IMG/VR virus record: IMGVR_UViG_3300021142_002226
Location: 96,001 to 160,000 of that record
Source of the DNA: a virus
Direction: 5' to 3' (one strand)
DNA length: 64,000 nucleotides
This document shows, piece by piece, positions 1,097-61,470 of this stretch. How positions within the stretch are numbered: position 1 is the stretch's first letter; every line of letters starts with the position of its first letter. Below the pieces are notes generated by a model. It was not told the origin of the DNA and ran no database searches. It saw nothing but the letters and a program-made list of their open reading frames with translations. A program made the translations under genes and the position numbers.

Positions 1097-2188
1097 ATGA
1101 GAATAAGTCCAACCGAAAGGCAAAAAATATACACGCAAGCCAAGCATAGATTAGGAGCACCAACCAGAAAAATACAGTTGGAGACCGAAACTATGGATAG
1201 TTTATTGGAAATTGCAACTGAAGACTATGTCGAATATATACAAAATTATTTAATAGAACAACAGTGGCCTTCACTTGTTGGTGTAAATGTTACAGAAGCA
1301 GATCTTACCAGAGCTTTTGTGAGCAGAAATTATGATCTTTTGACACAATACACTTACTCCTACTCAAAAATAGTTGGTTTGGGGGCTGGAGAAGGTGGAT
1401 ATATATTAAAAAAAGATTATGTGACTTTACAGTCTGGTGTACAAATGTATGAAATTCCAGCTAATCGTGAAATTAACGAAGTTCTTTGGTATAACCCAGC
1501 AACTTTGGATCAATCGGTTATTGATCCTTTTTTAGGTGTTTGGAACAATCAATTTGGCGCAGAATATATTGGATTAGGTTCATATTATATATTACCTGCA
1601 TTTGATATTTTAATGAGGGCTTCAGACAGAAATTTAAAAAACCGTTTGGTTAAGGGTGAATTATTATATAAAATCACAAACGCACCAAATGGAAAAAAAT
1701 ATTTACACCTTTTAAATACACCTGGTGGTCAATATGACCAAAACCAGGAAATATTACAATATGGTAGGGTTTGGTATTGGTATTACGATATTAATGGAAA
1801 TAAAGAAGATTGCCTGGAAAAAAATAAAGATATTATTAAGACACCGTCTGACGTTCCTCTTGATAATTTATCTTTTGATGATTTAAATGATCCATCTAAA
1901 GTTTGGATAAGACGTTATTTTGTTGCATTATGTAAAGAAACCTTGGGTAGAATTCGTGGTTATGCAAACGGAAAAATTCCTTCAGGAGAACAGCAAGCTT
2001 TAGAACTTGAATACCAATCTTTATACACTGAAGCTAAAGATGAAATGAGTATACTTAAAAAAGAGTTGGAAGATAGATTAATTAAATTCCACCCAACAGC
2101 AACATTAGAAAGAATGTCGAAAGAGGCTGAATTTATTAACACTGGTCTTAAATACAGACCAATGCCAAGACCAATTAGATTGATATAA
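1097..2188 (+). CDS. gp13: Neck protein, T4 gp13-like
   Basis: N-terminal RLGAPTRKIQLETETMDSLLEIATEDY resembles gp13 LGAPxxxVEL; C-terminal ELEYQSLYTEAKDEM...L is typical of the family. Confidence 0.75.
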   Translation: MRISPTERQKIYTQAKHRLGAPTRKIQLETETMDSLLEIATEDYVEYIQNYLIEQQWPSLVGVNVTEADLTRAFVSRNYDLLTQYTYSYSKIVGLGAGEGGYILKKDYVTLQSGVQMYEIPANREINEVLWYNPATLDQSVIDPFLGVWNNQFGAEYIGLGSYYILPAFDILMRASDRNLKNRLVKGELLYKITNAPNGKKYLHLLNTPGGQYDQNQEILQYGRVWYWYYDINGNKEDCLEKNKDIIKTPSDVPLDNLSFDDLNDPSKVWIRRYFVALCKETLGRIRGYANGKIPSGEQQALELEYQSLYTEAKDEMSILKKELEDRLIKFHPTATLERMSKEAEFINTGLKYRPMPRPIRLI

Positions 2189-2189
2189 C

Positions 2190-4346
2190 ATGTATAAAGT
2201 ATTTTTAGTTGAAAATGATTTCGATTTTGAACTTGCGGACGATGTTACAGAATACAGTCGTGATTATAGTTCATATGAAGCATTTTATATTGATGTGACA
2301 AAATCTTTATATTCAACAGGCGGAACTACTCAACAAACAAGTGTTTTACTAAATAATATTAGTTTAACTGGTTTTGATAATGGATTTTTGGGTGATGATA
2401 TACCCAAACAATATCAAGGAATTGTAGTTGCAAATAGTTATACATCTTATACACTTTCTGGTGACATGAATTGGGCATATATATTTAATGATTATACATA
2501 TGATTATACAGGATATACAGGACAAAAAGATTTATTAATAGAATTTAAACCACCTATTATCAGAAATACTTACGATTCATTAGTTTTTGTTGTTTATGAT
2601 AATAATAGTTCCTTTTATGAATATATACCATTTGCATACGAAGATGGTATATCAAATTTTTATACTTGCTATGATAATAATGGTTCTTTAAATGGTATAA
2701 TAAATTCAGGTGATACTATATCTTTTTATATCAGCAACAACACACTATATGTGCAAGTTAATGGTACAACAATTAGGGTAAATAATAACCCAAATACCAA
2801 TAATGACTATAGATTTGAATTTGGCGCATTAGCTACTGTCAGCGGTGAAACGTATACAGTTAATGATTTTTCCATATATTCACAAAGAATAATTTATACT
2901 GGAACATCAAACAATATTACAGACTTAAATCCTCAATTAACAGGAACAACTTATACTTGGGGTAAAACCAAATTTAAATTACTACCTGTTTCAACTTTAA
3001 ATATTGGGCAAAATAACAATATAAAATATGATATAATTCCTCAATATGATTACAAAGAATTGAATGGTGGATTCTATCAAGGTGCTTTTAAACTATACAA
3101 CTACCCTGTCCAATACTTCAAAACGAGAGCAAATAAAGGTTGGACAATTAATACTTTGATAACAAATCCTTCTGTTGTAACTGGTTCAACTAATTACTTG
3201 AATTTTTTACATCCTGATAATAGCGGAATTATATTTTATATCGGAACAAGAGCTGAAAATAAATATTGGTCAGTTACAGGTTCCGCAATAAATGTAATGA
3301 AAACCCAATATAAATTACCTACAAGTGGTGATACTGCAAGTGTCTTTAATTATAATAATAATTACAATAATACAGATTATCAGAACACTTACTACTATGA
3401 AGTACCAAATGATATTTCAAATAATGTTATAACTGGAATCACGGAACCAATTAGTAAAATCAATGACGAAATTGACCATGGTTTGATTGATGAAAATAAT
3501 ATGTACACCGTTGACGCTATTTTCACCTTAAATAATCAACCTTATTCTGGATATTATAATAGTAAAAATGGTTTATATTATTCTGGTAGAACATATGACG
3601 GAACAGGCAATGGTTTATTAAAGAAGATTAATTTTTATAAAGATGTTATTGATAATTCATTTGGAATCTTTTTAGATAAACATGGTAATATAGGATATAA
3701 GTTGATTTATGCTACAGATCCTTGTTATACTGGAACATGTCAAGACCCATTAACAATCACTAATAATAGTTTCATAGATTACACAACTGATTCAGATACG
3801 AATAAAATTCAAGAAATTAGAACAAAGTATTTTTCGATAAAAAAGGTTACTTCTAAAACACCAATTATAAATACTGGTGATACAATGAATAGATTTATAT
3901 ATTTGACAACAATTTTTGAAAGAGATTTTACTTATGACACTGATTGTATGTTAAAATATGGAAAGTATAAAAATGGTACTTTGAGTATATTCATTAACGG
4001 TAAAAAAGTTTTCGAAGATAAAAATTGTAATGAAATTATCCCACATGAGTTAGATACCGATTCGTTTTACCAAGAAGGTGTCCCATTCAACATATCATTT
4101 GGGGGTGGTACTCAAGGATTAATAAACTCCGTAGATATTTTAGGTAATTATACAAGTCCATATAATAAACTTATAATTGATGAATTTTTTAGTGGTACAT
4201 ATTTTGGTGGTGTCAAATCTATACAAATGTTAATGGTGCCGCTTGATGTGACAGAAATAAAATCAAATGTGGATAAAATAAAAAATATATATAATTTACC
4301 AACAATAACTGGTGGTAGATATGTTAAATTAAAACAATTATACTAA
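2190..4346 (+). CDS. Virion structural protein (Thr/Asn/Tyr-rich, LamG-like C-terminus)
   Basis: 718-aa ORF with beta-rich composition; C-terminal LSIFING...ISFGGG...YFGGVKSIQM pattern; follows the neck gene. Confidence 0.5.
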   Translation: MYKVFLVENDFDFELADDVTEYSRDYSSYEAFYIDVTKSLYSTGGTTQQTSVLLNNISLTGFDNGFLGDDIPKQYQGIVVANSYTSYTLSGDMNWAYIFNDYTYDYTGYTGQKDLLIEFKPPIIRNTYDSLVFVVYDNNSSFYEYIPFAYEDGISNFYTCYDNNGSLNGIINSGDTISFYISNNTLYVQVNGTTIRVNNNPNTNNDYRFEFGALATVSGETYTVNDFSIYSQRIIYTGTSNNITDLNPQLTGTTYTWGKTKFKLLPVSTLNIGQNNNIKYDIIPQYDYKELNGGFYQGAFKLYNYPVQYFKTRANKGWTINTLITNPSVVTGSTNYLNFLHPDNSGIIFYIGTRAENKYWSVTGSAINVMKTQYKLPTSGDTASVFNYNNNYNNTDYQNTYYYEVPNDISNNVITGITEPISKINDEIDHGLIDENNMYTVDAIFTLNNQPYSGYYNSKNGLYYSGRTYDGTGNGLLKKINFYKDVIDNSFGIFLDKHGNIGYKLIYATDPCYTGTCQDPLTITNNSFIDYTTDSDTNKIQEIRTKYFSIKKVTSKTPIINTGDTMNRFIYLTTIFERDFTYDTDCMLKYGKYKNGTLSIFINGKKVFEDKNCNEIIPHELDTDSFYQEGVPFNISFGGGTQGLINSVDILGNYTSPYNKLIIDEFFSGTYFGGVKSIQMLMVPLDVTEIKSNVDKIKNIYNLPTITGGRYVKLKQLY

Positions 4347-31315: not shown

Positions 31316-32359
31316 ATGGATAAAAAAGAATTATTAATTGAGTATAGTAAATGTGTTGCTGACCCATGTTATGTTATTGAAAATTACTATGTAACATTCG
31401 ATAAAACAAGGGAAAGTTATGTCCCATTCAAATTATTCGAAAGACAAAAAGAGCTCATAAGAAACTATGAAGCTAACAGGTATAACATTGTCTTAAAATA
31501 CAGACAAGCAGGTATTACAACTGTAACTGCTGCTTATGCGGCGGTTAAAGCGGTAATGGCAAACGCTGAAAACCCTGAAAGAATATTGATTCTTGCTAAT
31601 AAGCAAGAAACGGCAATAGAGTTTCTTACAAAGATAACCGACTTTATTAAACAATCACCTAATTGGTTGTTGACAAATATCGGAACATTTAATAAAGAGG
31701 GTAAAATTGATTTTACAAAGGGTGCCTCTAAACACGTTAAGTTTAAAAATGGTTCTGAAATCAAAGCGGTTGCAACATCTAAAGATGCCTTGCGTGGTTA
31801 CACACCAACAATCATGATTCTGGATGAGGGTGCGTTCATTGAGGGTGGTCAAGAATTATGGTCAGCATGTCTGGCCTCAGTTTCAACAGGTGGTAAAGTA
31901 TATCTTATCTCAACACCTAATGGTATGGATGAAATATACTACGAAGCTTATGAAGGTTCTGTTGACGGTACAAACAAATTCAAAATTACAGCGATCAAAT
32001 GGTGGGAAGATCCAAGATATAACAAAGGTTTAAAAATGATAAAAACCGATGATATTATAAACTGGATTCAAAAACCTGAGGCAGAAAAAAATGAAGAGAT
32101 TCTCACAGACATTATTCCAGCTGAAGTAAATGGTGTCGTTAAGCCTGATTTATATAAACAAATCATGAATTATATAACACAAGGTTATCAACCACATTCA
32201 CAATGGTTTGAGAATATGTGTCGTGATATGAACTTAAATAAACGAATGATCAACCAAGAGTTGAATTGTGTTATAGGTCAAACAATGGTTACTATTAGGA
32301 ATAAAAATACTGGTATTATTGAGAATATATTGATTCAAGATTTAAATAGTAGACTCTAA
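31316..32359 (+). CDS. terL: Large terminase N-terminal fragment (ATPase) plus split-intein IntN
   Basis: CVADPCYVIENY, FKLFERQ, LKYRQAGITT (Walker A variant), ILDEGAF (Walker B), ISTPNG, WWEDP; ends QELN|CVIGQT... Confidence 0.93.
   Translation: MDKKELLIEYSKCVADPCYVIENYYVTFDKTRESYVPFKLFERQKELIRNYEANRYNIVLKYRQAGITTVTAAYAAVKAVMANAENPERILILANKQETAIEFLTKITDFIKQSPNWLLTNIGTFNKEGKIDFTKGASKHVKFKNGSEIKAVATSKDALRGYTPTIMILDEGAFIEGGQELWSACLASVSTGGKVYLISTPNGMDEIYYEAYEGSVDGTNKFKITAIKWWEDPRYNKGLKMIKTDDIINWIQKPEAEKNEEILTDIIPAEVNGVVKPDLYKQIMNYITQGYQPHSQWFENMCRDMNLNKRMINQELNCVIGQTMVTIRNKNTGIIENILIQDLNSRL
32267..32356 (+). mobile_element. Split intein N-fragment (30 aa) of TerL
   Basis: Block A CVIGQTMVTIRNKNTG followed by a stop after 30 aa. 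Confidence 0.9.
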
Positions 32360-32389
32360 CTTCTGATTAAATTTAAACTATTTATTATT

Positions 32390-33313
32390 ATGGAAATAAT
32401 TAATAAAACAAAAAAAGGTTGGATAACATCAAAAGCAAAAATAACAAGTGATATTTATGATAAAGATAAAACAATAAAAATATTAAAAGAAAATGATTTT
32501 TATTTATCGTTATTGGGTCGAGCAAAAAACAGAACACTAATAAAAAATGATAGTGTTTTATATAATTCTATATATGAGTATACCAAATCTCTGAATGATT
32601 TAAATAAAAATAATAATAAATTTTCTATCAGAATTTTATTTTTAGTGAAAGATAGTGGTGATATAGAAAGAATAAAATGTAAAAAATGTTTAAATAATTT
32701 AACATCATTTAATTATGAAAAAGGTTATTTTAATGAATACTGTTTAAATTGTTTTAATACAAAAAAAATTAAATACCCAAATATTGACTGGTTTAAAACT
32801 AAGTACTCATCTAATTGGGAATATTTCTATAAATTGGATCGTGAGAGAATTAAAAATAAAAAAGTTGGCAGTAAAGATTGGTATATTAAAAAATATGGCG
32901 AGTTAAATGGTACATTAAAATATGATAATGTTAAAGAAAACAGAATTAATAATCTAACTAATTTAATTGGTGTAAAATATTCTAAAATTTCACAAGAAAT
33001 ATTTTGGTTAATTTATAAAGAATTAACAGATGATGAAAAAAATAAATGTTATTTTAAAGAACTAAATCATGAATATTTCTTAAAAAACGGTAATTCTTGT
33101 TTTTTTATTGATTTTAAATGTGGTGATTTTGTCATAGAATATGATGGTGAATATTGGCATAAAAATAGAAAAGAATTGGATGAATTACGAAATGTGTTTT
33201 ATAAAAAAAATAAATTAAATCTTTTAATACTTAACGAAAAAGATTATAATAGAACAAACAAAAACGAAGACACAATCGAAAAATGTTTGGCGTTTATTAG
33301 AAATGAATATTAA
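32390..33313 (+). CDS. Free-standing homing endonuclease (Vsr/DUF559-like C-terminus) between the TerL halves
   Basis: YSKISQEIF...FIDF...VIEYDGEYWH...D..R; CxxC pairs; own TATTTAT at 32379. Confidence 0.8.
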   Translation: MEIINKTKKGWITSKAKITSDIYDKDKTIKILKENDFYLSLLGRAKNRTLIKNDSVLYNSIYEYTKSLNDLNKNNNKFSIRILFLVKDSGDIERIKCKKCLNNLTSFNYEKGYFNEYCLNCFNTKKIKYPNIDWFKTKYSSNWEYFYKLDRERIKNKKVGSKDWYIKKYGELNGTLKYDNVKENRINNLTNLIGVKYSKISQEIFWLIYKELTDDEKNKCYFKELNHEYFLKNGNSCFFIDFKCGDFVIEYDGEYWHKNRKELDELRNVFYKKNKLNLLILNEKDYNRTNKNEDTIEKCLAFIRNEY

Positions 33314-33629
33314 ATTAAATACTGAATATGAAGTCTTAACACCAAATGGTTTTAAAGATTTTTATGCAATAAAACAAATAAAAAAAACCTATTTGAAAAT
33401 ATCATTTAATAACGGTGAAGAAATAGGTATAACACCCAATCACATTTTTGTTATTAACAATGTTGAAATTTTAGCTAAAGATATTAAAATTGGTGATAAA
33501 TTACAAGGTATTCATGATGAATTAATAGTAATCTCAATTACACCTGTTGATGAATTTACAGATGTTTATGATTTAATAGAAGTGGATGGTGGTAATATAT
33601 ATTATACTAATAATATATTATCTCATAAT
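33303..33629 (+). mobile_element. Split intein C-fragment (109 aa) of TerL
   Basis: VLTPNGF, block B ITPNHIF, block F VYDL, block G SHN, with Cys at +1. Confidence 0.9.
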
Positions 33630-34535
33630 TGTGCTTTTATTGGTTCTGGTGATAACGTAATTGATGCGGCAATACTTGAAAAACAATTACAAATAAATGT
33701 ACAAGACCCAATAATTAAAGATTCAAGATGGGATAGTACATTATGGATATGGAAATATCCTGAGGAAGGTCACAGATACATTGGTGCCCTTGACGTATCC
33801 AGAGGAGATTCCGAGGACGCTACTGGATATAGTATTATCGATTTTGATACTTTTGAACAAGTTCTTGAATACCATGGTAAGGTTCCACCTGACGTTGCTG
33901 CGATAATTGTTGAGCAATATAGTAAAATGTATAATGCATTAACCACTTTCGATATAACTGGTGGTATGGGTATAGCCGCAATCAATAAGCTGAAGGAAAT
34001 GAATTTTCCATCTAAACTTTATCATTACGATGATGATAACGATTTAACATTATTTTATGGTGCGGACTCAGACAAAACACCTGGAATCAACTTTGCTTCA
34101 AAAAATAGACGTGTACAAATAGTACAGGCTCTCGAAGAAGCTGTATGTCGTGGTGGGTTTAAAATTAGAAGTGTTAGATTAATAAACGAATTGAAAAAAT
34201 TTGTATTCAAGAACGGTAAACCTGATCATATGAAAGGTTCACATGATGACCTTATCATGGCCTTGGGTATGTGTTTGTTTGTCGCAAATACCTCTTTCAA
34301 AAGATTATCTGAAAATACTTCTACAACAAAAGCTATGTTAGATAGTTGGAAAGTTCAAACTAATAGCATCCAATCAACAGCCGCAAATATGATAAATGAT
34401 ATTAATACGTTAGTCAGTAACGATAAAATTTATGATAATCAGGGTATTTATAGTAATAAAGAAGAAATATTACAAAATACTCGTGACTTTTCTTGGTTAT
34501 TTGGTAATATTAATAAATATAACCCTCAAAATTAA
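33303..34535 (+). CDS. terL: Split-intein IntC plus large terminase C-terminal nuclease fragment
   Basis: IntC ends ILSHN|CAFIGSG; RNase H-like motifs YIGALDVSRG, HDDLIMA. Confidence 0.93.
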   Translation: MNIKLNTEYEVLTPNGFKDFYAIKQIKKTYLKISFNNGEEIGITPNHIFVINNVEILAKDIKIGDKLQGIHDELIVISITPVDEFTDVYDLIEVDGGNIYYTNNILSHNCAFIGSGDNVIDAAILEKQLQINVQDPIIKDSRWDSTLWIWKYPEEGHRYIGALDVSRGDSEDATGYSIIDFDTFEQVLEYHGKVPPDVAAIIVEQYSKMYNALTTFDITGGMGIAAINKLKEMNFPSKLYHYDDDNDLTLFYGADSDKTPGINFASKNRRVQIVQALEEAVCRGGFKIRSVRLINELKKFVFKNGKPDHMKGSHDDLIMALGMCLFVANTSFKRLSENTSTTKAMLDSWKVQTNSIQSTAANMINDINTLVSNDKIYDNQGIYSNKEEILQNTRDFSWLFGNINKYNPQN

Positions 34536-34771: not shown

Positions 34772-37579
34772 ATGGCAAATTTTACAGTATTTCAAAAATT
34801 AAATAAAGTTTTAGGTAATGAATTAGAATCACCTAAATATACCATTGACCCAAATTCATTCAAGAATCTTGACGATCAGGAACTCGAAATGAAACGACTT
34901 GAGGCACAGCAGGTCATCTATTTACAGAATCAGTGGAAAAAAATTGATAACGAATTATATCAAAAAGCTGTTTATTACGAACCAACCAGAATCGCATCAT
35001 ATTATGATTACGAAGCAATGGAGTTTTGTTTGGCTGGAGAGACTAAAATAGCAACACCAAGCGGATTCATAACCATAGAAGAGTTAGCTAAAAAGGGTAG
35101 GGAGAATGAATTTATTGTTTATTCCTATGACCATAATACTAAAAAAGTTGTACCAGCATGGGCTAAAAACGCACACCATACAAGAGATGAAGTGACATAT
35201 AAGGTTATTTTTGACGATGATTCTTATATTATTGGTACTTTTGACCATAAATTAATGAAAAGAGATGGTAGTTTTTCAAAAATTTCAGAATTAAAAGAAG
35301 GGGATTCTATGATGCCTTTCTATAGAAAATCTTTTTATAATAACCAAAAATATAATTGGGTTTATACTTGTAATTCATTAGAAGGTTATAATGGTTGGGT
35401 ATCTGAACACAATTTAATTGCTGAGTGGTTCTATGAGACTAAAATTAATGAAGATGAAGAGGTTCACCATATAGATTTTAATGGTAAAAACAATTCCCCT
35501 GAAAATTTATCTATTATGAAAATATCTGAGCATAGAGCATACCATGCGAGATTAAATAATAGTAAGCTTTGGGTAAATGAGGAATATAGAGCAAAAATGC
35601 TTGAAATAAGTAAAAGAACAGATAATAAACACAAATGGAATGGTGCAAGAAGTGGTAAGAATAATCCAGCTTATTTTAAAATACCTTTTGATTTAATTAT
35701 TGAAACAGCAAAAAAAATTAAAACACTTAAAGGTACGGCGAAAGAGTTAAATATTTCTCACACAAAATTACAAAGAGAAATAATGATGGCTGGATATAAA
35801 GACTGGAAAACATTTTGTCATGCATATAGTATAGAGTTATCTAAATACTCAACAGCAACCGTTAAAGGTGAACAATATGTTCTGAATCATAAAATTAAAT
35901 CTATTGAACCATATAAAGTTATACCAGTATATGATTTGACAGTACCAGGGTATAAAAATTTTGCAACAGATACAATATTTTCACATAATACTCCAGAAAT
36001 TGCTGCTGCGCTTGATATATTTTCTGAGGAGGCAACAACACCTAATGAAAGTGGTAAAATTCTAACAGTATATTCGGAAAGTAATCGTATCAAAGACGAA
36101 TTAACAGACCTTTTTGATAATGTAATCGATATCAATTCAGTTATCACCAGCTGGGCAAGAAACCTATGCAAATATGGTGATAATTTTTTATATAACAAGG
36201 TTATTCCAGGTAAAGGTATTGTGGGTGTAACACAATTACCAAACATCGAAATCACAAGAGCTGAACCAGGTTTCTCAAAAGTTATGAGTATGGATGATTT
36301 CCAAAAAGAAAAGAATGTTAAATTCTTTTGGAAGGAAAAACAACTTGATTTCAACTCATTTGAGATATCTCACTTCAGACTCATGGGTGATGATAGACGT
36401 TTACCTTATGGTACAAGTATGCTCGAAAAAGTTAGAAGAATTTGGAAACAATTACTTTTAGCCGAAGACGCTATGCTTGTTTATCGTGTTACCAGAGCCC
36501 CAGAAAGACGTGTTTACAAAGTTTATGTAGGTAATATGGATGAAAAAGACATCGATGCTTACGTAGATAAAGTCGCTAATAACTTCAAAAGATCAAATTT
36601 GGTAAACTCATCAAACGGACAACAAGATACCAGATATAATGCTATGGCCGTGGATCAAGACTTTTTTATCCCAACCAGAGACCCTCAATTACCAATGCCA
36701 ATTGAAACATTACCAGGAGCTCAAAATCTTGGGGAAATAGCTGATATTCAATACATTCAAAATAAAATGTTGGCTGCTCTAAGAATCCCTAAAACGTTCT
36801 TAGGTTTTGATCAAGCTGTTGGTGACGGTAAAAACCTATCCATTCTTGATATACGTTTTGCAAGAGCTGTTTATAGATTACAAAGATCTATAATACAAGA
36901 GTTAAATAAAATGGCAATCATCCACCTTTATGTTAAAGGTTATGAGGATGATTTACATAATTTTACTCTATCTTTATCTAATCCTTCCACCCAAGCAGAC
37001 ATGCTTAAAATCACTAACTGGCAAGCTAAAATACAACTTTACAAAGACGCTGTTACAGATCTTGGTAATGGTTTTGGGCCTGTATCACAAACTTGGGCTA
37101 AGAAAGAAATTCTTGGATTCAGTGATGATGAAATTAAAATTGATGTTCAAAGACAAGTTGTGGAAAAAGCAGCCTCTGAAGAACTTAAAATGTTGGGTGA
37201 AACAATCAAACAAACAGGTATGTTTAGAGATTTGTATAAATTATACAAGATTGATCCTAACAATATGGGACAAGCGCCTGCTGAAAACCAACAACAAGAA
37301 ACTCCTCCAGGCGGCGGAACAGGTGGTGGTGTAGCTCAAGATTTCACAGCACCACTCGAAGGTGGAACAACCCCTGAAATTGGTGGAACGGAAACAACAC
37401 CAGAAGCTGGTGCTGCACCAGAGGCTGGCACGGCTGAAACCCCAATGCCAGGTACGCCAGGTGAAGAAACACAATTACAAGAAAATATGGTAAAAAGGAT
37501 GTTATTGAATAGAAGACAGTCAATAAGTGAAAATATTTCCAAAACTTTGGATGATATTGACAAAATGTTAAACGAATAA
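34772..37579 (+). CDS. gp20: Portal protein (T4 gp20-like) with an intein
   Basis: YEAMEF|intein|TPEIAAALD, RLPYGTSMLE, YRVTRAPERRVY, DFFIP, L..ALRIPK. Confidence 0.93.
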   Translation: MANFTVFQKLNKVLGNELESPKYTIDPNSFKNLDDQELEMKRLEAQQVIYLQNQWKKIDNELYQKAVYYEPTRIASYYDYEAMEFCLAGETKIATPSGFITIEELAKKGRENEFIVYSYDHNTKKVVPAWAKNAHHTRDEVTYKVIFDDDSYIIGTFDHKLMKRDGSFSKISELKEGDSMMPFYRKSFYNNQKYNWVYTCNSLEGYNGWVSEHNLIAEWFYETKINEDEEVHHIDFNGKNNSPENLSIMKISEHRAYHARLNNSKLWVNEEYRAKMLEISKRTDNKHKWNGARSGKNNPAYFKIPFDLIIETAKKIKTLKGTAKELNISHTKLQREIMMAGYKDWKTFCHAYSIELSKYSTATVKGEQYVLNHKIKSIEPYKVIPVYDLTVPGYKNFATDTIFSHNTPEIAAALDIFSEEATTPNESGKILTVYSESNRIKDELTDLFDNVIDINSVITSWARNLCKYGDNFLYNKVIPGKGIVGVTQLPNIEITRAEPGFSKVMSMDDFQKEKNVKFFWKEKQLDFNSFEISHFRLMGDDRRLPYGTSMLEKVRRIWKQLLLAEDAMLVYRVTRAPERRVYKVYVGNMDEKDIDAYVDKVANNFKRSNLVNSSNGQQDTRYNAMAVDQDFFIPTRDPQLPMPIETLPGAQNLGEIADIQYIQNKMLAALRIPKTFLGFDQAVGDGKNLSILDIRFARAVYRLQRSIIQELNKMAIIHLYVKGYEDDLHNFTLSLSNPSTQADMLKITNWQAKIQLYKDAVTDLGNGFGPVSQTWAKKEILGFSDDEIKIDVQRQVVEKAASEELKMLGETIKQTGMFRDLYKLYKIDPNNMGQAPAENQQQETPPGGGTGGGVAQDFTAPLEGGTTPEIGGTETTPEAGAAPEAGTAETPMPGTPGEETQLQENMVKRMLLNRRQSISENISKTLDDIDKMLNE
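35027..35989 (+). mobile_element. Contiguous intein (321 aa) with an HNH endonuclease
   Basis: CLAGET...TFDH...VHHIDFNGKNNSPENL...VYDLTV...FSHN|T. Confidence 0.92.
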
Positions 37580-53648: not shown

Positions 53649-53923
53649 TTAAATTCCGTAATTAGCTCTTTGAGCATTAAAGTTTTGTGAAATTTCTGTG
53701 GCAGATAAGCCTCTGTTATACATTTGTATTGCACCCATGTAACCTTGATATAGCGCACCACTTCCACTATATCTACCTAATATACCAAACTTGGGTCAAC
53801 ACCTGACCAATAATCTGTAGTAACAGTTGGGCCATAAGCAATAGTATCGGTACCCAATAAAACATTACCTTTTTTTATTGTACCTGTTAAAGAAGTTGCT
53901 GAATATTTTACTGCATTACCCAT
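53649..53923 (-). pseudogene. Internally deleted, frameshifted paralog of the neighbouring LamG gene
   Basis: Frame 1: MGNAVKYSATS...GPTVTTDYWSGVDP. Frame 2: ...MYNRGLSATEISQNFNAQRANYGI*. These match the two ends of 53941-54966. Confidence 0.8.
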
Positions 53924-53940
53924 GTTAATAAATATTAACT

Positions 53941-54966
53941 TTATATACCAAATCTCGACCTCTGAGCATTGAAATTTTGACTTATTTCTGTTGATGATAA
54001 TATTCTGTTATATACCTGACATATTGCTATTCTACCAGGAAAAAAATTGGATGTGCCACCACCAGGGCCTCCAAGTCTTATCAAACCAATACCCAAACTA
54101 ACACCAGTTGAAGATTGCTCAACAATTGCTGAATTTGATTGGGTTGTTGTGGTCGACCCATTAAGATAAAATATGGCTGTTTTGGTACTTGTATTCCATG
54201 TTACACAAACATAATTCCAAGTATTTAACGTTAATGCTGTACCTGTATCAACTAAATCTTTATTAGCGTGAGGCCAGAACTGTAATTTATTACTACTGTT
54301 TAACCAAAAACCCCATCCCCCATAAGCTGATGATCCTCCGCTACCTGTATTATCATATTCTTTATCAATAATTCCAGCAACACCACTTGGTGATGATGTG
54401 GGATATATCCATGCACACGCTGTTTTATTGGCAACATCCACACCAAGATTATTTGAACCAAAATTTATATAACTTGAAGCACCATCAAAAGATAAATAAC
54501 CACCATTACCAGAGTTCCAAGTTGGTGAATTTGTTAAAGTACCAGAAATATTACCTCCAGAAATATCCCACCAAGAATTACCATTTTGAGGATATGATTG
54601 TATAAAACCTGAATCAATGTTAAAAACAAGTCCGCTTGTTACAATATTTTCATATAATCTATTTGTCACAAGGATATTTGATTGCGTTTCAAAATAATTT
54701 AACGCACCATTAAATGTTGTTATCCCAGAGCCACCAAGTTGGTTGGCCAAAGTTACAATTTGAGTTGAATCTACATAATATATTCTTGGGGCACCAGAAG
54801 TCCCAACAAAATAATAAATACAATAATTTGAACCTGGATTAACCGCAGTCCAAAAATCTGTTGTACTTGTTGGCCCATACTGAACTTGATTTGCACCAAT
54901 TGCAACATTATTAGCTCTTAATGCATTCGAGGGTGTTGTTGTTGAATATTTTATACCATTATCCAT
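53941..54966 (-). CDS. LamG/concanavalin-A-like virion protein
   Basis: SYPQNGNSWWDISG, FDGASSY, WIYP, WNYVCVTW, YLNG, VYNRILSSTEISQNF. Confidence 0.85.
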   Translation of the reverse strand: MDNGIKYSTTTPSNALRANNVAIGANQVQYGPTSTTDFWTAVNPGSNYCIYYFVGTSGAPRIYYVDSTQIVTLANQLGGSGITTFNGALNYFETQSNILVTNRLYENIVTSGLVFNIDSGFIQSYPQNGNSWWDISGGNISGTLTNSPTWNSGNGGYLSFDGASSYINFGSNNLGVDVANKTACAWIYPTSSPSGVAGIIDKEYDNTGSGGSSAYGGWGFWLNSSNKLQFWPHANKDLVDTGTALTLNTWNYVCVTWNTSTKTAIFYLNGSTTTTQSNSAIVEQSSTGVSLGIGLIRLGGPGGGTSNFFPGRIAICQVYNRILSSTEISQNFNAQRSRFGI

Positions 54967-55005
54967 AAATTATCTTTATCTTATGAATAAATATCCATGA
55001 AATTA

Positions 55006-55443: not shown

Positions 55444-55923
55444 TTAAATATTATTTAATGTTTTGATTATTTTATTTTTGATACCATCTTGTTTTATACC
55501 GTCATTATCTTTCGAACAAATTACAAAATGGTCGGTTAACCATGTCTTCATATCAAGGTCGTCAATTGCTACCCATGGTTCATTAATATTATGCACATTT
55601 AACCACTGATTGATTTCTTGTGCACGATTAAATTCGAGGGTAGTTGCAACACTATTATTGAATGTACCTGTGAAACCTATCGGTTGTTTAATCACACCTT
55701 GCCAAGAGTACATTTCCCTCATCATAGGTAAAGATAAATCGTATTTCCAATCAGAAGATACAACTATTTCAGCATCAGGTACTTCTATTAAAATTTCATT
55801 TAATATTTGTACACAACCCTTATCAAAATAATCAACATCATATTTGTTTGGTCTTTTCGCTCTTGAACCCCATTGCGGTTGAAGACACATCACGCCATCA
55901 TGATCAAGAAATATTAGTTTCAT
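55444..55923 (-). CDS. HAD-domain protein (HAD_SAK_2, RNA-repair-associated type)
   Basis: IFLDHDGV, IVVSSDW, EI..WL, VAIDD, DGI. Confidence 0.75.
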   Translation of the reverse strand: MKLIFLDHDGVMCLQPQWGSRAKRPNKYDVDYFDKGCVQILNEILIEVPDAEIVVSSDWKYDLSLPMMREMYSWQGVIKQPIGFTGTFNNSVATTLEFNRAQEINQWLNVHNINEPWVAIDDLDMKTWLTDHFVICSKDNDGIKQDGIKNKIIKTLNNI

Positions 55924-56159
55924 TTTTTTCTAAATGTAAATTTTTTATTTATATTTTTGTTAAAGTGTTTACCCTGGCTTTCTGCCATGTCAAACTCCGT
56001 AAATGTTTTATGGTCTACATTATCATATTCATAAGTTGAACCATTACTAAACGTAATTTCGAGTAATTTAGACTCAATATCATATTGAGCTTTATGAATA
56101 TTTGAAGAGTCATATTCACATAAGATTTTAGTACCTAAGATAGCTTTTGATTTATTCAT
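55920..56159 (-). CDS. KTSC-domain protein
   Basis: SSNI..AQYD....LEITF.NG.TYEY..V...F..AESQGKHFN.NI. Confidence 0.9.
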   Translation of the reverse strand: MNKSKAILGTKILCEYDSSNIHKAQYDIESKLLEITFSNGSTYEYDNVDHKTFTEFDMAESQGKHFNKNINKKFTFRKK

Positions 56160-56230
56160 AACAATATTTATTTTATATTATTACAAATATACTAAAAAAA
56201 GCGGATAAAAACAATTTTTGATAAAAACAT

Positions 56231-56261
56231 TTTGTTGTTTCGGAAATTATTATTACATTTG
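56231..56261 (+). promoter_or_regulatory. Bacteroidetes-type promoter for the clpC N-half
   Basis: TTTG(56231)-N19-TACATTTG(56254-61). Confidence 0.7.
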
Positions 56262-56279
56262 TATAAAATCAAATTATAG

Positions 56280-57056
56280 ATGCAAGAAAAAATGAGCAAC
56301 GAGCTGAGGATAGCTTTTCAAAAGGGTTATAAATCAGCAATAATTTTAAATGATAGTCTAATTAGAATTGAACACGTTCTGTACGGTATACTCACTACAA
56401 ACAATATCATCAGTGAAATAATTAGTAAAAAACTTGAGGATTTTGATGTTTTCATAAATGACATTGAAGATCATAACAGAAGTATATCGGAAGATATTGA
56501 CCCAGAATTAAGGACAGAAAAAGTTCTTAATTTCGAAGATTCTCTTAAGGTATTGGTAAAAAAATGTGCCCAAAAATCTAATGATGCAATTACAGTCAAC
56601 ACATTTTTTATGAGTTGTTTTGATCTCGATAATCAAATCATCAAAATAATGAACGAATACGGTATAACAAAATCATTTATGCAAAGAAGACTTAAACAAC
56701 TAACACCAACTGCCTCTACATTCCCACTCGATGAAAACTTCGAAAAGAGATATGATGGCAATAATTCAAATAGACAAAAATCTAAAACCCCAGTTTTGGA
56801 TAACTTCAGTCGTGATTTAACCATTCTTGCAACTGAGGGTAAACTCGATCCTGTAATTGGTAGAGAAGCTGAAGTTGAACGTGTTGCCCAAATCCTCACC
56901 AGACGCAAAAAGAACAACCCAGTTCTTATTGGTGATCCAGGTGTTGGTAAATGCTATATTAAAGAAACTAATATATGTTTACGAAATGACCTAACTGGTG
57001 AAATTTTTAGTATATCAGTCAATGATTTTTTAACATCGCTTACCGATGCCAAGTAA
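56280..57056 (+). CDS. clpC: ClpC-type AAA+ ATPase N-fragment plus split-intein IntN
   Basis: Clp-N (EHVLYGIL), [39 protein letters not shown]|CYIKET... Confidence 0.93.
56952..57053 (+). mobile_element. Split intein N-fragment (34 aa) of ClpC
   Basis: [26 protein letters not shown], then a stop. Confidence 0.88.
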
Positions 57057-57111
57057 TCTTTTTTTTAAATAATTGATTTACTTTCTTAATTTTTATACTA
57101 TTTATTGTGGT

Positions 57112-58566
57112 ATGAGAATTGTAACAAAAAAAGAAAGTTTTGATTTTAAAGAATATTTTAAAACTGTTAATGATTTAAAAACATTTATCAAAGAAAATAA
57201 TGAATTTGTAAATGTTGAAGGTATTGGTGAAAAGATAGGTAAATTATATGATGATTTATCCGAATTAGATATTTCTTTAAAATCATCGGTTTTACCTGAA
57301 AGATTAATTTATTATCTTGGTTTTAAGAATAGGTCAGCATTTAAGTTGGATTTTTGGTTGGAGCGTGGTAATACTATAACCGAATTTAATACTTGGTTAT
57401 TAAAAAGGAGAAATATTGAACCAGTTAAATCTTTGGAATGTGGTAACGTAAATAAATTCGAATACGGTGAGTTTAAATTTACGTTTGATGGTAGACCAGT
57501 TTGTAATTTATGTAAATCCGATTTAACATTTGATGTTTTAACCGATAGGTATGTGATAAAAAATTGTCAAAATGATGGTTGTCCAACACACAAAAATCAA
57601 GATCAATACTTCATAAGGCAACTGGCTTATTTGCCTATTGATATTTTTAAAAATAAAAATAAGAGAACTAACATAGAATCGAGGATTCATCCTTATTTTT
57701 GGTTGTTGTCTGGTTTAACTTATGATGAGTCGTTGAAAAAATGTGAAGAGATAAAAACCACACTTAAAAATAAAATAAAGGGGTCAGATGAATATTATAA
57801 GATTTTATTTGGTTTGACTGATGAAATGGCTTTAGATAGGGCTTTAGCACCAACTCAAATTAGGTTTTGGGTTAATAGGGGTTTTTCGGAGGAGGATGCT
57901 AAGATCAAAGTGTCTGAAAACCAAAAGAATGCGGCTAAATCTGTTGATTTTGAGAAACGGTTATTACCATCAAATATTGAGTATTGGATTAAAAGGGGTT
58001 TAACGGAAGATGACGCTAAGGTTGAAGTATCTAATCATCAGAGGACGTTTACACTTCAAAAATGTATTGATAAACATGGTGAAGGAACTGGTAACCTTAT
58101 CTATACTAAACGACAAGTTAAGTGGCAAACTTCATTAATTGAAAATGGGAATTTAAAATGTGGGTTTTCAAGAATATCACAAGAATTATTTTATCGACTA
58201 TTAGACGAATATTCATTTAAAGAAAAAATTGACGTTTTTTTTGCTACAAAAAATAAAGAATATTTTATATCTTTAAAGGGTGGTGAATTTTATCAATATG
58301 ATTTTGTTGATAGGAATAAAATGAAAATTATCGAATTTAACGGTGACTGTTATCATGCAAACCCAATTAAATATAATGAAAATGATAAGCCCAATCCGTT
58401 TAGACAAAACCTAACAGCATCAGATATATGGGCTAAAGATAAAAGAAAAACGGAAGTTGCTATTGAAAACGGTTTTCAGCTCTTAACAATATGGGAATCG
58501 GAGTATAAAAAGAATAAAGAGTTAACAATAAAAAAATGTTTGGATTTTTTGGAAATCCGAGAATAA
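57112..58566 (+). CDS. Free-standing homing endonuclease (Vsr-like C-terminus) between the clpC halves
   Basis: Start reassigned to ATG 57112, behind TATTTAT at 57099; FSRISQELF...YDF...IIEFNGDCYH...D..K...TIWESE; W..RG.sEE repeats. Confidence 0.8.
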   Translation: MRIVTKKESFDFKEYFKTVNDLKTFIKENNEFVNVEGIGEKIGKLYDDLSELDISLKSSVLPERLIYYLGFKNRSAFKLDFWLERGNTITEFNTWLLKRRNIEPVKSLECGNVNKFEYGEFKFTFDGRPVCNLCKSDLTFDVLTDRYVIKNCQNDGCPTHKNQDQYFIRQLAYLPIDIFKNKNKRTNIESRIHPYFWLLSGLTYDESLKKCEEIKTTLKNKIKGSDEYYKILFGLTDEMALDRALAPTQIRFWVNRGFSEEDAKIKVSENQKNAAKSVDFEKRLLPSNIEYWIKRGLTEDDAKVEVSNHQRTFTLQKCIDKHGEGTGNLIYTKRQVKWQTSLIENGNLKCGFSRISQELFYRLLDEYSFKEKIDVFFATKNKEYFISLKGGEFYQYDFVDRNKMKIIEFNGDCYHANPIKYNENDKPNPFRQNLTASDIWAKDKRKTEVAIENGFQLLTIWESEYKKNKELTIKKCLDFLEIRE

Positions 58567-58579
58567 ATAACTAAATTTG
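58548..58579 (+). promoter_or_regulatory. Bacteroidetes-type promoter for the clpC C-half
   Basis: TTTG(58548)-N20-TAAATTTG(58572-79). Confidence 0.6.
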
Positions 58580-58586
58580 CAAAAAA

Positions 58587-59066
58587 ATGACAATGAATTA
58601 CTACGAATTTTATGAACAAGAGTCGTTGGCTCAGTTAGATAAGGATTACCCAAATGAAGAGGGGCATAAAAAATTCACCAAAACTTGGAATATCGAAAAT
58701 TTTAGTGTTTTAACGGACAATGGATTTCAAAAAATTGATAAACTACATGAAACAATATCGTACAATGTTTATCATTTAATATTGGATAATGGATTTGAAC
58801 TTAAATGCGCTGATAACCATATTGTTATGTTACCTCGTATGGTTAACATGGTAAGACAACTCGATAATATGAGTGAATCGACAGAACCTATTGAATGTTA
58901 TGTTAAAAATTTGAAACCAGGTGACTTAGTTCATACTAATGATGATATTGGTTGTGCCTCTGTTGTATCCGTAACCAATCTTGGATATCAAGAGAATATG
59001 TATGATTTGCAATTATCAGACGATTCTAACCACAGATATTACACTAATGGTATATTGAGCCATAAT
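58587..59066 (+). mobile_element. Split intein C-fragment (about 160 aa) of ClpC
   Basis: VLTDNGF, block [22 protein letters not shown], with Thr at +1. Confidence 0.88.
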
Positions 59067-60857
59067 ACAGCTATCGTTGAAGGATTGGCCATTAAAATAG
59101 CAAATAACGATTGTCCCAGAACATTGCAAGGTAAGCGTCTTGTTACGCTCGACCTAACCTCAATGGTTGCTGGTACAAAATATCGTGGCCAGTTTGAAGA
59201 ACGCATAAAAGCGTTACTTGATGAAGTTCGTGATAACGATCAGGTTATATTATTCATTGATGAACTACACACAATGGTTGGTGCTGGCAATTCATCTGGT
59301 TCCCTTGATGCTGCAAATGTATTCAAACCAGCTCTTGCTCGTGGTGAAATACAATGCATTGGTGCAACAACTCTTGACGAATATCGTGAACACATTGAAA
59401 AAGATGGTGCACTTGATAGAAGATTTCAGAAAGTAATGGTTAACCCACCATCAATTACTGAAACCAGAGATATTTTAATGAACATAAAAAACAAGTATGA
59501 GGACTATCATAAAGTAACTTATACTGAAGATGCTGTTGATGAAATTGTAAGACTTGCTGATAGGTATATTACCAATCGTGAATTTCCAGACAAAGCTATT
59601 GATATACTTGATGAAGCTGGCTCACGCACACACATTAATATAAAACCACCTCAAATCATTAAAGATCTACAAGACGAGATTAATGAAATTAAAGTTGAGA
59701 AACAAAATGTTGTTAAAACACAAAATTTTGAAAAAGCAGCAGACCTTAGAGATAAGGAAAAGAAACTATTAACACAACTTGATAAAGAATCTGGTATTTG
59801 GAAAAAAAGTCTTGAAATAGATAGAGTTGTTATCGATGAAAACATGATAGCTGATGTTGTATCATCAATGACTGGTATACCTGTAAGTAGGGTTTCACAA
59901 AACGAAATTCAAAGATTACTTCAAATAGACACTGAATTAAAAGATTCTGTGATAGGTCAAGATGAAGCAATTCAAAAAGTTGCTTCAGCTATCAGACGTA
60001 ATAGAACTGGTATAAGCAGAAAAAGTAGACCAATTGGTTCTTTCATGTTTATAGGCCCTTCAGGTGTTGGTAAAACGGAACTTGCCAAAACTCTCGCTGA
60101 AAAAATCTTCGGAACACAAGATGCTTTAATCAGATTTGATATGTCTGAATTCGGTGAGAAATTTAATGTAAGTAAACTTATAGGTTCACCTCCAGGATAT
60201 GTTGGTTATGAAGAAGGCGGCCAACTTACAGAAAAAATTAAGAATAAACCCTATTCATTAATATTGTTCGATGAAATCGAGAAAGCGCACCCAGATGTTT
60301 TTAATATCCTACTCCAATTACTGGATGAAGGTCATCTTTCAGATTCATCAGGTAGAAAAATAAACTTTAAAAATACCATCGTCATTATGACATCTAATAT
60401 CGGTATTAGAGAAGTTCAAGATTTCGGAACCAAAATTGGTTTTAGCGCCGATGGTTCAGAAGATGATTTGAAAAACGCAAATTATATCATAGAAAAAGCT
60501 TTGAAAAAGCAATTCAAACCAGAGTTTTTAAATAGGTTAGATGATATAATTTACTTTAATTATCTTAAAGATGAAAGTATATTAAAAATTATCGATATAC
60601 AATTAAACGATCTTGAAGAGAGATTACTCGAATCTTGTTATACACTTGAAATTGGTAAAAACGTTAAAGAATACGTATTAAAACAAGGTTATGACAAAAA
60701 TTACGGAGCCAGAGAAATTCAACGAACAGTTCAAAAATACCTCGAAGATCCTATTTCCGAGGAATTGTTAAAAGAACATATGCCTAAATTTGCACATATT
60801 ACCGTTGGTTACGATAAGAAAAATGATAAGCTAAATATCAAAATAACCACTACTTAA
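58587..60857 (+). CDS. clpC: Split-intein IntC plus ClpC C-fragment (rest of NBD1, UVR domain, NBD2)
   Basis: ILSHN|[62 protein letters not shown]. Confidence 0.93.
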
Positions 60858-60889
60858 TTTGGATATTTACACACTATTTAGTATATTTG
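60858..60889 (+). promoter_or_regulatory. Bacteroidetes-type promoter
   Basis: TTTG(60858)-N20-TATATTTG(60882-89). Confidence 0.65.
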
Positions 60890-60936
60890 TGCCACTTAGC
60901 AATAAGTGGTATATTTATTTTTAAAAACTATAACAT

Positions 60937-61470
60937 ATGAAAAAGAAATTGTTTGTAATTGTTTTGTCGGTTATTTCGATTGGATTATGCTCATGGTTCT
61001 CATATAATAATTTTATCAGATCTGAGAAATTTACCCATTTTCCAGAATCGGTTAAAATGTATTTCTACATTGAGAAATATTCAAAAGAATATGGTATTCC
61101 AAGAAATATTGCTTATGGTATACCTTATTATGAAACTAATTATAAAGGCCCTACTGATACTACATATAACCCAAAAAGAACCTCAAAATCTAAGGCTTAT
61201 GGGGCAATGCAGCTAAAGTTGAAGACGGCCAATGCTGTATGCGATTCAACTATCACGAGAAAAGAACTATTGAATAATACTGAACTTAATGTAATACTTT
61301 CATTCAAACTACTGAAGACTCTACATGACAAATATGGGAGTTGGAAATTGGCTTTGGGTGCATATAATACAGGTAAACCTGTTGTAAACAAGTATTCAAA
61401 AAATATAACCAAATTCAGTTTAAGAAAAATATTTAAGACACAGAATTACCTATATGCAACAACAAATTAA
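60937..61470 (+). CDS. Lytic transglycosylase (SLT domain) with an N-terminal signal/anchor
   Basis: MKKK plus a hydrophobic helix; YYETNY (catalytic Glu), AYGAMQL, ALGAYNTG. Confidence 0.85.
   Translation: MKKKLFVIVLSVISIGLCSWFSYNNFIRSEKFTHFPESVKMYFYIEKYSKEYGIPRNIAYGIPYYETNYKGPTDTTYNPKRTSKSKAYGAMQLKLKTANAVCDSTITRKELLNNTELNVILSFKLLKTLHDKYGSWKLALGAYNTGKPVVNKYSKNITKFSLRKIFKTQNYLYATTN

Follow-up and report, generated by a model that had tools for sequence, protein, structure and literature searches.

A phage clpC gene fractured within its first Walker A motif by a predicted atypically split intein

Fractured genes were described by Dassa, London, Stoddard, Schueler-Furman, and Pietrokovski in 2009 as phage-borne arrangements in aquatic metagenomes (PMC2677866). 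The atypically split inteins AceL-TerL and GOS-TerL combine an N-terminal intein fragment (IntN) of 25 to 37 amino acids (aa) with a long C-terminal fragment (IntC) and class-1 chemistry with Cys1, and natural inteins of this kind, with a peptide-sized IntN, are described as rare (PMC11766414). Here, we describe a fractured clpC gene at positions 56280 to 60857 of a 64,000-nucleotide (nt) stretch of DNA, hereafter the window, which comprises bases 96001 to 160000 of the 190,177-bp IMG/VR virus record IMGVR_UViG_3300021142_002226 (∼30% G+C; estimated to be ∼64% complete). Like the loci of 2009, it has the two halves of a host gene fused in frame to the halves of a split intein on one strand, with a free-standing gene for an endonuclease between them and a short noncoding gap before that gene, 55 nt here versus 27 to 51 nt there (PMC2677866). 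The source is a large (jumbo) freshwater T4-like phage, whose T4-type major capsid protein, portal, and terminase are encoded in the window. We consider it very probable that this is an active fractured gene, with separately made halves that would be joined by class-1 trans-splicing into an 820-aa ClpC working with ClpP, and with an endonuclease that drives its spread.

Anatomy of the locus and its empty-site allele

The three open reading frames (ORFs) that fill 56280 to 60857 all lie on the plus strand. ORF 1 (56280 to 57056) encodes 258 aa: a 224-aa ClpC N-extein (56280 to 56951), made up of a divergent N-domain, a linker, and the start of the first ATPase domain (D1) as far as the Walker A residues GDPGVGK, followed by a 34-aa IntN that begins at the catalytic Cys1 and ends in TDAK before a stop codon (56952 to 57056). 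ORF 2 is open from a TTG codon at 57073 (497 aa); since its homologues align only from ORF residue 14, the endonuclease gene most likely starts at the ATG at 57112 and runs to 58566 (484 aa), 55 nt past the first stop. ORF 3 (58587 to 60857; 756 aa) begins 20 nt past the endonuclease gene. It encodes a 160-aa IntC (58587 to 59066) ending in SHN and then a 596-aa ClpC C-extein (59067 to 60857), which begins with TAIVEGLA and comprises Thr+1 of the Walker A motif, the remainder of D1, a UVR-type middle domain, and a complete second ATPase domain (D2) with an intact Walker A motif, an IGF loop, and the D2-small domain.

Among 80 related IMG/VR loci, one on a 39-kb contig (L002) carries a single uninterrupted ClpC of 820 aa that is 99% identical to both exteins, the N-extein corresponding to its residues 1 to 224. 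This homologue places the break inside a single conserved gene. Relative to L002, the window holds an exact in-frame insertion of 2,115 bp (56952 to 59066) that separates the Lys codon of the D1 Walker A motif from the Thr codon, with flanks of 98.8% and 96.3% DNA identity; across the empty site, L002 reads GGTGTTGGTAAA/ACAGCTATCGTT (GGTAAA/ACAGCT; slashes mark insertion points throughout). So exact an insertion rules out chance and shows that the mobile unit consists of IntN, endonuclease gene, and IntC together. An initial annotation of the window had proposed that a 34-aa IntN follows GDPGVGK, that a nuclease gene of roughly 484 aa and an IntC of roughly 160 aa ending SHN/TAIVEGLA come after it, and that only splicing would rebuild GDPGVGKT. 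The ORFs bear out each of these parts, and the joined sequence GDPGVGK/TAIVEGLA is identical to that encoded by the uninterrupted L002 allele and is therefore no chance resemblance.

The fractured form is present in independent data. Sixteen freshwater runs from 2012 to 2018 contain 96 to 100% of the sampled words of 56700 to 59300, a 2.6-kb stretch with both junctions; 13 of these runs are possible sources of the assembly, and three, from three studies, are not flagged as sources. Contigs of run X14, which is not flagged as a source, tile 56100 to 61000 with 0 differences and span 56951/56952, the stop at 57054, and 59066/59067, reproducing the two junctions as well as the stops. Assemblies from ENA, JGI, NCBI, and Logan contain homologous fractured loci. 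Contigs from two RNA libraries (X17 and X18) cover portions of IntC and, in one library, also the IntC/extein junction; with carryover of DNA possible and contigs only to go by, they are compatible with removal of the intein at the protein level and are no proof of transcription. A scan of 55900 to 61200 against Rfam at E ≤ 1 returned no group I or group II intron and no other relevant RNA, and RNA splicing was dropped as an explanation, nothing in that scan supporting it. Contigs matching only 56910 to 56950 were considered as empty phage alleles and rejected; they are clpC genes of other organisms, with GC-rich loose ends.

Substitution patterns point to purifying selection on every part of the locus. 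Against L002, the ratio of nonsynonymous to synonymous substitution rates (dN/dS) of the C-extein was 0.022 at a synonymous divergence (dS) of 0.13; the N-extein differs at 3 nt (dS, 0.007), too few for a dN/dS estimate. Against the fractured allele L084, dN/dS was 0.06 for the C-extein (dS, 2.79), 0.16 for IntC (dS, 0.83), and 0.13 for the C terminus of the endonuclease (dS, 0.83). From these low values we conclude that exteins, intein, and endonuclease are all being maintained.

The same comparison with L002 revealed an asymmetry around the insertion site, dS being about 20-fold lower upstream (56280 to 56951; 0.007) than downstream (59067 to 60854; 0.131), where mismatches are patchy. The pattern looks like recombination mosaicism around the site, and no link to homing emerged from it. 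A co-conversion tract was considered and set aside: the mismatches form no clean tract, and the site has 118 nt of identity on one side and 83 nt on the other.

The predicted split intein, the unfoldase, and the endonuclease

Judged by its sequence, the intein is a class-1 split intein with a HINT fold that belongs to the atypically split, short-IntN lineage of AceL, GOS, and Cat-TerL. Its 34-aa IntN and its 160-aa IntC with blocks B (LKCADNH), F (MYDLQL..NH), and G (GILSHN) have the layout of that lineage, and the best match of IntC among solved structures was CatC of the consensus atypical intein (6DSL_B; E = 9.3e-8), with which it has the block B motif KC.DNH and a YYTNG..SH end in common. 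The residues expected to carry out the chemistry are conserved throughout. Cys1 (Cys225, directly after GVGK) was invariant in an alignment of 29 N-halves, as were H78 of block B, D140 of block F, H159, N160, and Thr+1 (T161) in an alignment of 28 C-halves, and the IntN motif C...T..(R/K)N..TGE was conserved across dozens of N-half relatives.

A model of the complex between IntC (residues 1 to 175 of its ORF product) and residues 213 to 258 of the N-half gave an interface score (ipSAE) of 0.81, versus 0.00 for the best control. Of 80 solved complexes, 58 reach the pass mark applied, as do 2 of 110 mismatched pairs; these counts are approximate since custom alignments were used. Runs had at least 66% of contacts in common, with a predicted local distance difference test (pLDDT) score of at least 73 for the partner, and modeled IntN residues 223 to 238 packed on IntC residues 38 to 42, 72 to 78, 136 to 141, and 151 to 158, which correspond to blocks B, F, and G. 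Because the complex of the Cat intein has already been solved, we read this result as a predicted likeness to a working split intein rather than as binding by the present copy.

Sequence comparison likewise indicates that the host protein is a divergent phage unfoldase of the ClpC type. The N-extein matched phrog_4871, annotated "ATP-dependent protease" (E = 1.6e-29), and Pfam recognized AAA_lid_9, UVR (25.5 bits; cutoff, 21.5), AAA_2, and ClpB_D2-small in the C-extein. The intact L002 ClpC found its best PDB match in Bacillus subtilis ClpC/MecB (3J3S; E = 1e-219) over a single stretch, with ClpB ranking behind and aligning in two. We regard the protein as a divergent phage member because the NCBIfam ClpB and ClpA equivalogs scored 845 and 759 bits, under their cutoffs of 1,232 and 993, in a library that holds no ClpC equivalog. 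Pfam Clp_N did not match the N-half in the window, and PF02861 is recorded for relatives at 60 to 71% identity. The protein has an intact D2 Walker A motif (GPSGVGKT), both Walker B motifs, and a KIGF loop. The loop lies between an IMTSNIG motif and the D2-small domain, a position that we take to be the site of the ClpP-docking tripeptide of ClpA and ClpC, and its G618 and F619 were invariant in 28 relatives.

The same phage encodes a ClpP (G000:C1:6235-6762, minus strand, outside the window) that scored above the NCBIfam ClpP subfamily cutoff and whose score as a prohead protease was far poorer. Hence the partner of ClpC need not be the ClpP of the host, which the initial annotation had suggested as a possible partner: we infer a ClpP partner as it did, and the sequences make the likeliest one the phage's own protein, rather than or besides that of the host. 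Together, the two genes suggest a complete phage ClpCP protease.

The protein encoded between the two halves (57112 to 58566) had no match in Pfam or NCBIfam and nothing useful in a sequence search of the PDB; by sequence it matched only phrog_22677, of unknown function. Its family numbers 5,620 metagenomic representatives at E ≤ 0.001. The last 243 residues were modeled at a pLDDT of 91, and the model aligned with the Vsr endonuclease (1CW0; Z = 11.1; root mean square deviation [rmsd], 4.1 Å; 130 residues), with 3HRL (Z = 10.3; rmsd, 2.2 Å; 90 residues), and with the catalytic domain of I-Bth0305I (3R3P; Z = 10.2; rmsd, 2.9 Å; 95 of 97 residues). Foldseek alone gave weak matches (E ≥ 0.019). 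In an alignment of homologues, E167, H174, and an Asn were invariant and D156 and D202 nearly so, in the pattern ...YDF.D...IIEFNGD.YHANP...D..K.... The N-terminal two-thirds consists of helical repeats, putatively DNA binding, and the C-terminal ∼135 aa form the nuclease. By modeled fold and conserved residues, the protein is a Vsr-like homing endonuclease of the I-Bth0305I/EDxHD type. Two paralogues occur in the same genome, one between the halves of a fractured terminase gene in the window and one upstream of the window (G000:C1 ∼53700-54740, minus strand); this third Vsr-like copy adjoins a weak IntC-like match.

Relatives of the locus and neighboring features

A search with IntC yielded 575 cluster representatives. 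The best 120 of the 575 comprised ∼35 C-halves split in D1, 16 middle pieces (beginning with IntC and ending, past the D2 Walker A motif, in another IntN), and 71 C-pieces split in D2. Dozens of N-halves of ∼260 aa end in GVGK/C plus a conserved IntN of 30 to 40 aa. Two other contigs carry the same D1 split with an endonuclease gene of 483 to 484 aa, and the loci L082 and L083 have the D1 split with a 28-nt gap and without an endonuclease gene, from which it follows that the split persists by itself. The same split is retained in alleles down to 50 to 60% identity with Walker B, the arginine fingers, and the IGF loop intact. An IntN-seeded search for longer proteins returned no contiguous ClpC intein, only N-pieces split in D2 (455 to 684 aa), which is weak evidence. 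Two apparent contiguous D2 inteins were rejected as probable endonuclease frames running into IntC; one of them, L163, is the contig also labeled L043, in which the endonuclease is present.

Several relatives are interrupted at more than one site. P0030 and P0032 (middle pieces) and P0041 and P0048 (C-pieces) belong to three-piece ClpC proteins with related atypically split inteins in both Walker A motifs, for which mispairing or cyclization is possible in principle. P0037 (1,129 aa) combines a D1-split C-half with a contiguous, LAGLIDADG-containing D2 intein (SRLIG/C ... VHN/SPPGYVG), a third site for inteins in phage ClpC.

Outside clpC, the intein has relatives in other ATPases. Of 50,697 GenBank phage records, 316 matched IntC (≤40% identity), and all 30 of the relatives listed lie in terminase genes, none of them in a Clp gene. 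The two Ackermannviridae TerL genes inspected hold a contiguous mini-intein, which in the Kuja copy sits at the TerL Walker A motif (RQSGK/C...SHN/TT). The IntC-end motif before Thr occurs in at least 119 IMG/VR stretches, where the hosts are TerL (mostly long open frames of the IntC type), ClpC D1, ClpC D2, a single-domain AAA ATPase, and a DnaB-like helicase. Among loci L087 to L166, the single-domain AAA ATPase is that of L111 and L166, with G..G.GK/C upstream, and the DnaB-like helicase is that of L126. These sequences suggest an intein lineage specialized on the GK/T bond of P-loops. We placed 193 IntC cores in a FastTree phylogeny, which, with few columns and many forks unresolved, is a lead and not a history. 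In it, the 50 D1 inteins group together (SH-like support, 96), and midpoint rooting makes 77 D2 inteins their sister block, with the TerL Walker A inteins further off and the phage's own AceL-type TerL intein the most distant.

That TerL intein lies in a second fractured gene of the window (31316 to 34535, plus strand), which consists of TerL-N (Terminase_6N) ending QELN/C plus a 30-aa IntN, a 307-aa Vsr-like paralogue, a 109-aa IntC ending SHN/CAFIGSG, and TerL-C. It is of the AceL/GOS-TerL type and is identical to the ClpC intein at 11 of 30 IntN, 43 of 99 IntC, and 15 of 32 modeled interface positions. Downstream, at 34772 to 37579 (plus strand), a T4-type portal gene contains a contiguous intein (C/LAGETKI ... 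IFSHN/TPEI) with an HNH endonuclease domain; Pfam scored Intein_splicing at 47 bits, above its cutoff, and HNH_3 at 21.2 bits, under its cutoff of 24.8.

Signals that might govern expression of the clpC locus are weak leads. A promoter-like motif of the Bacteroidota type (TTTG-N19-TAcaTTTG; 56231 to 56261, plus strand) lies 19 nt upstream of the ClpC-N start, a second (58548 to 58579, plus strand) overlaps the endonuclease gene at its end, 8 nt upstream of the IntC start, and a consensus scan placed a terminator-like hairpin directly past the ClpC stop (60888 to 60913, plus strand). The motif TTTG-N17-21-TANNTTTG occurs 8 times in the window versus 5.4 ± 2.25 times in shuffled sequence, which is no significant excess, and with the count not above shuffles we dropped the motif as a basis for expression or host assignment. 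Further upstream, the two phages, otherwise 97 to 99% identical, differ in gene content: L002 has an additional 545-aa Laminin_G_3 (concanavalin A-like lectin) gene (1381 to 3018), corresponding to 54972 to 54977 of the window, next to the counterpart of the single 341-aa lectin-like gene of the window (53941 to 54966).

Proposed mechanism, alternatives, and comparison with known systems

We propose that a mobile element entered a phage clpC gene precisely where the Lys codon of the first Walker A motif meets the Thr codon. The two ClpC halves would be translated separately, and the short IntN would dock into the nearly complete IntC and finish its HINT fold. Cys1, the block B His, the block F Asp, the terminal His-Asn, and Thr+1 would then carry out trans-splicing, yielding a ClpC of 820 aa in which the GDPGVGKT P-loop is whole again and whose IGF loop most likely serves to feed the phage's own ClpP. 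Intein-less alleles are presumably cut by the endonuclease, that of L002 around GGTAAA/ACAGCT among them, whereupon the entire cassette would be copied into these alleles during coinfection.

Several observations weigh against this proposal. Trans-splicing is something that we infer from sequence and modeling rather than show. Pfam Intein_splicing matched IntC at E = 6.9e-5 and 23.1 bits, under its curated cutoff of 35.8. Block B (CADNH) has an Ala, invariant in the ClpC lineage, at the position usually held by Thr; by analogy with the splicing-competent Cat intein, which has Ser there, the Ala is probably tolerated. IntC is 30 to 45 aa longer than most of its relatives, with an acidic N-terminal tail and an extra loop. 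In favor of the proposal, the 190-kb record holds no second clpC gene; given the incompleteness of that record, a copy elsewhere is nonetheless possible. Finally, the insertion could be recent, and the pair formed with L002 says little by itself about long-term function because the N-extein differs at only 3 nt; that argument is carried by the more diverged fractured alleles.

A broader scenario is conceivable, though we hold it to be improbable: the GK/T-specialized lineage would have moved among unrelated ATPases (TerL, ClpC D2 and D1, the AAA protein, and the DnaB-like helicase), and the split in ClpC would have been kept as an obligatory assembly gate for ClpCP. If so, gating would arise because D1 could bind ATP only once both separately expressed halves had met and spliced.

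Somewhat less likely still is that splicing has been co-opted as a control point: D1 would become active only in the presence of both separately promoted halves (or once Cys1 is reduced), which would time phage ClpCP during infection. The promoter-like motif before each half would fit, as would persistence of the split after loss of the endonuclease and the recurrence of both the D1 and D2 Walker A motifs as targets. However, the motif is not above chance in the window, and the difficulty of deleting an intein exactly accounts equally well for persistence without an endonuclease.

It is unlikely that the halves simply assemble noncovalently, their intein pieces having decayed to interaction domains. 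The fragmented NrdA of phage Aeh1 gives a precedent, with interaction domains derived from a mobile element that keep the divided enzyme together (PMC3045599), and the block B Ala in place of Thr could be read in the same way. Yet all catalytic residues are invariant in the 28 to 29 diverged relatives, which is unexpected where chemistry is not needed, and ∼190 intein residues left between Lys and Thr in the D1 P-loop should block nucleotide binding.

We give very little weight to the possibility that the insertion killed the gene, leaving a decaying pseudogene in a phage that no longer needs ClpC. Selfish elements can inactivate genes, and with an uninterrupted clpC in many relatives, the broken form could be a dead end. 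Against this, the three ORFs are intact, dN/dS is 0.02 to 0.06 for the exteins and 0.16 for the intein, the split is kept at 50 to 60% identity alongside the conserved ATPase and IGF-loop motifs, and endonuclease-free split alleles retain both intein halves. An assembly or sequencing artifact, with chimeric stops and inserted block, might be suspected in a metagenome-assembled virus contig and is scarcely credible here, given the junction stretch in 16 runs (three of them not flagged as sources), the X14 contigs that span the junctions without differences, and the homologous fractured loci in four sets of assemblies.

A trans-spliced ClpC would extend fractured genes from enzymes of DNA metabolism to a proteostasis machine. 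Inteins split in this atypical way, with a peptide-sized IntN, are valued for protein semisynthesis and labeling; the ClpC lineage contributes many natural, diverged split pairs with a Thr+1 junction, and its relatives with two related intein pairs in one protein offer a natural setting in which to test orthogonality. The site is now at hand in three states, namely, empty (L002), split with an endonuclease gene (the window), and split without one (L082 and L083), so that the gene-breaking model of split-intein evolution can be put to a direct test. What the window newly provides is the exact empty-site allele, the phage ClpP, and the placement of the intein in a lineage of GK/T P-loops. There is also a warning for annotation: in source annotations the N-halves are named ClpC, many C-terminal pieces of the D2 type go under "hypothetical protein" or "MoxR-like ATPase," and an intein is mentioned in none of them.

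Full-text literature searches, with two key studies of atypical inteins outside their reach, found no intein in ClpC, ClpA, ClpB, ClpX, or Hsp100; the only Clp-related intein in the literature searched was that of the chloroplast ClpP protease. ClpC thus appears unpublished as a host of such a split intein, of an element type that is already known. In the initial annotation, no Clp/Hsp100 ATPase was known to host a split intein, and a new host and a new site were proposed. Our searches agree as to the first, and host and site are indeed new to the literature searched; the intein type is not, since it belongs to the atypically split lineage of TerL, and the arrangement is common in metagenomes.

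Comparison with described systems shows where the locus departs from them. Its endonuclease belongs to the Vsr-like family that is present in half of the fractured genes of 2009, whereas the eight hosts reported there (gp41, IMPDH, DnaE, NrdA, NrdJ, ligase, terminase, and one unknown) include no chaperone, and the words "Clp," "ATPase," and "Walker" do not occur in that text (PMC2677866). All but one of those inteins are canonically split, with an IntN of 88 to 105 aa, versus 34 aa here (PMC2677866). With AceL, GOS, and Cat (PDB 6DSL), the ClpC intein shares the short IntN, an IntC with blocks B, F, and G, Cys1, and the KC.DNH and YYTNG..SHN motifs. It differs from them in its host (ClpC and not TerL), its +1 residue (Thr and not Cys), its insertion in a P-loop, and the length of its IntC (160 aa versus 104 to 115 aa).

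In P-loop position and C-terminal motif, the intein resembles the TerL Walker A mini-intein of Ackermannviridae and other cultured phages (Vibrio phage Kuja; MN718199.1), of which the Kuja type has LKCADDH as block B and 38 to 40% identity to the ClpC IntC; unlike the ClpC intein, the mini-intein of these cultured phages is contiguous and lies in terminase. The endonuclease resembles I-Bth0305I (3R3P; PMC3239194) in its predicted nuclease fold, its conserved acidic and His residues, and its bipartite build with a putative DNA-binding N-terminal region. I-Bth0305I is intron encoded, whereas the present protein, at ∼20% sequence identity, is encoded by a free-standing gene between intein halves, and its cleavage activity is only presumed. 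Finally, the D2-split and three-piece ClpC proteins of related metagenomic phages have inteins of the same lineage at the homologous K/T bond, D1 and D2 inteins being sister groups in the midpoint-rooted tree; unlike those relatives, the phage of the window has the D1 split only and keeps its D2 Walker A motif intact.

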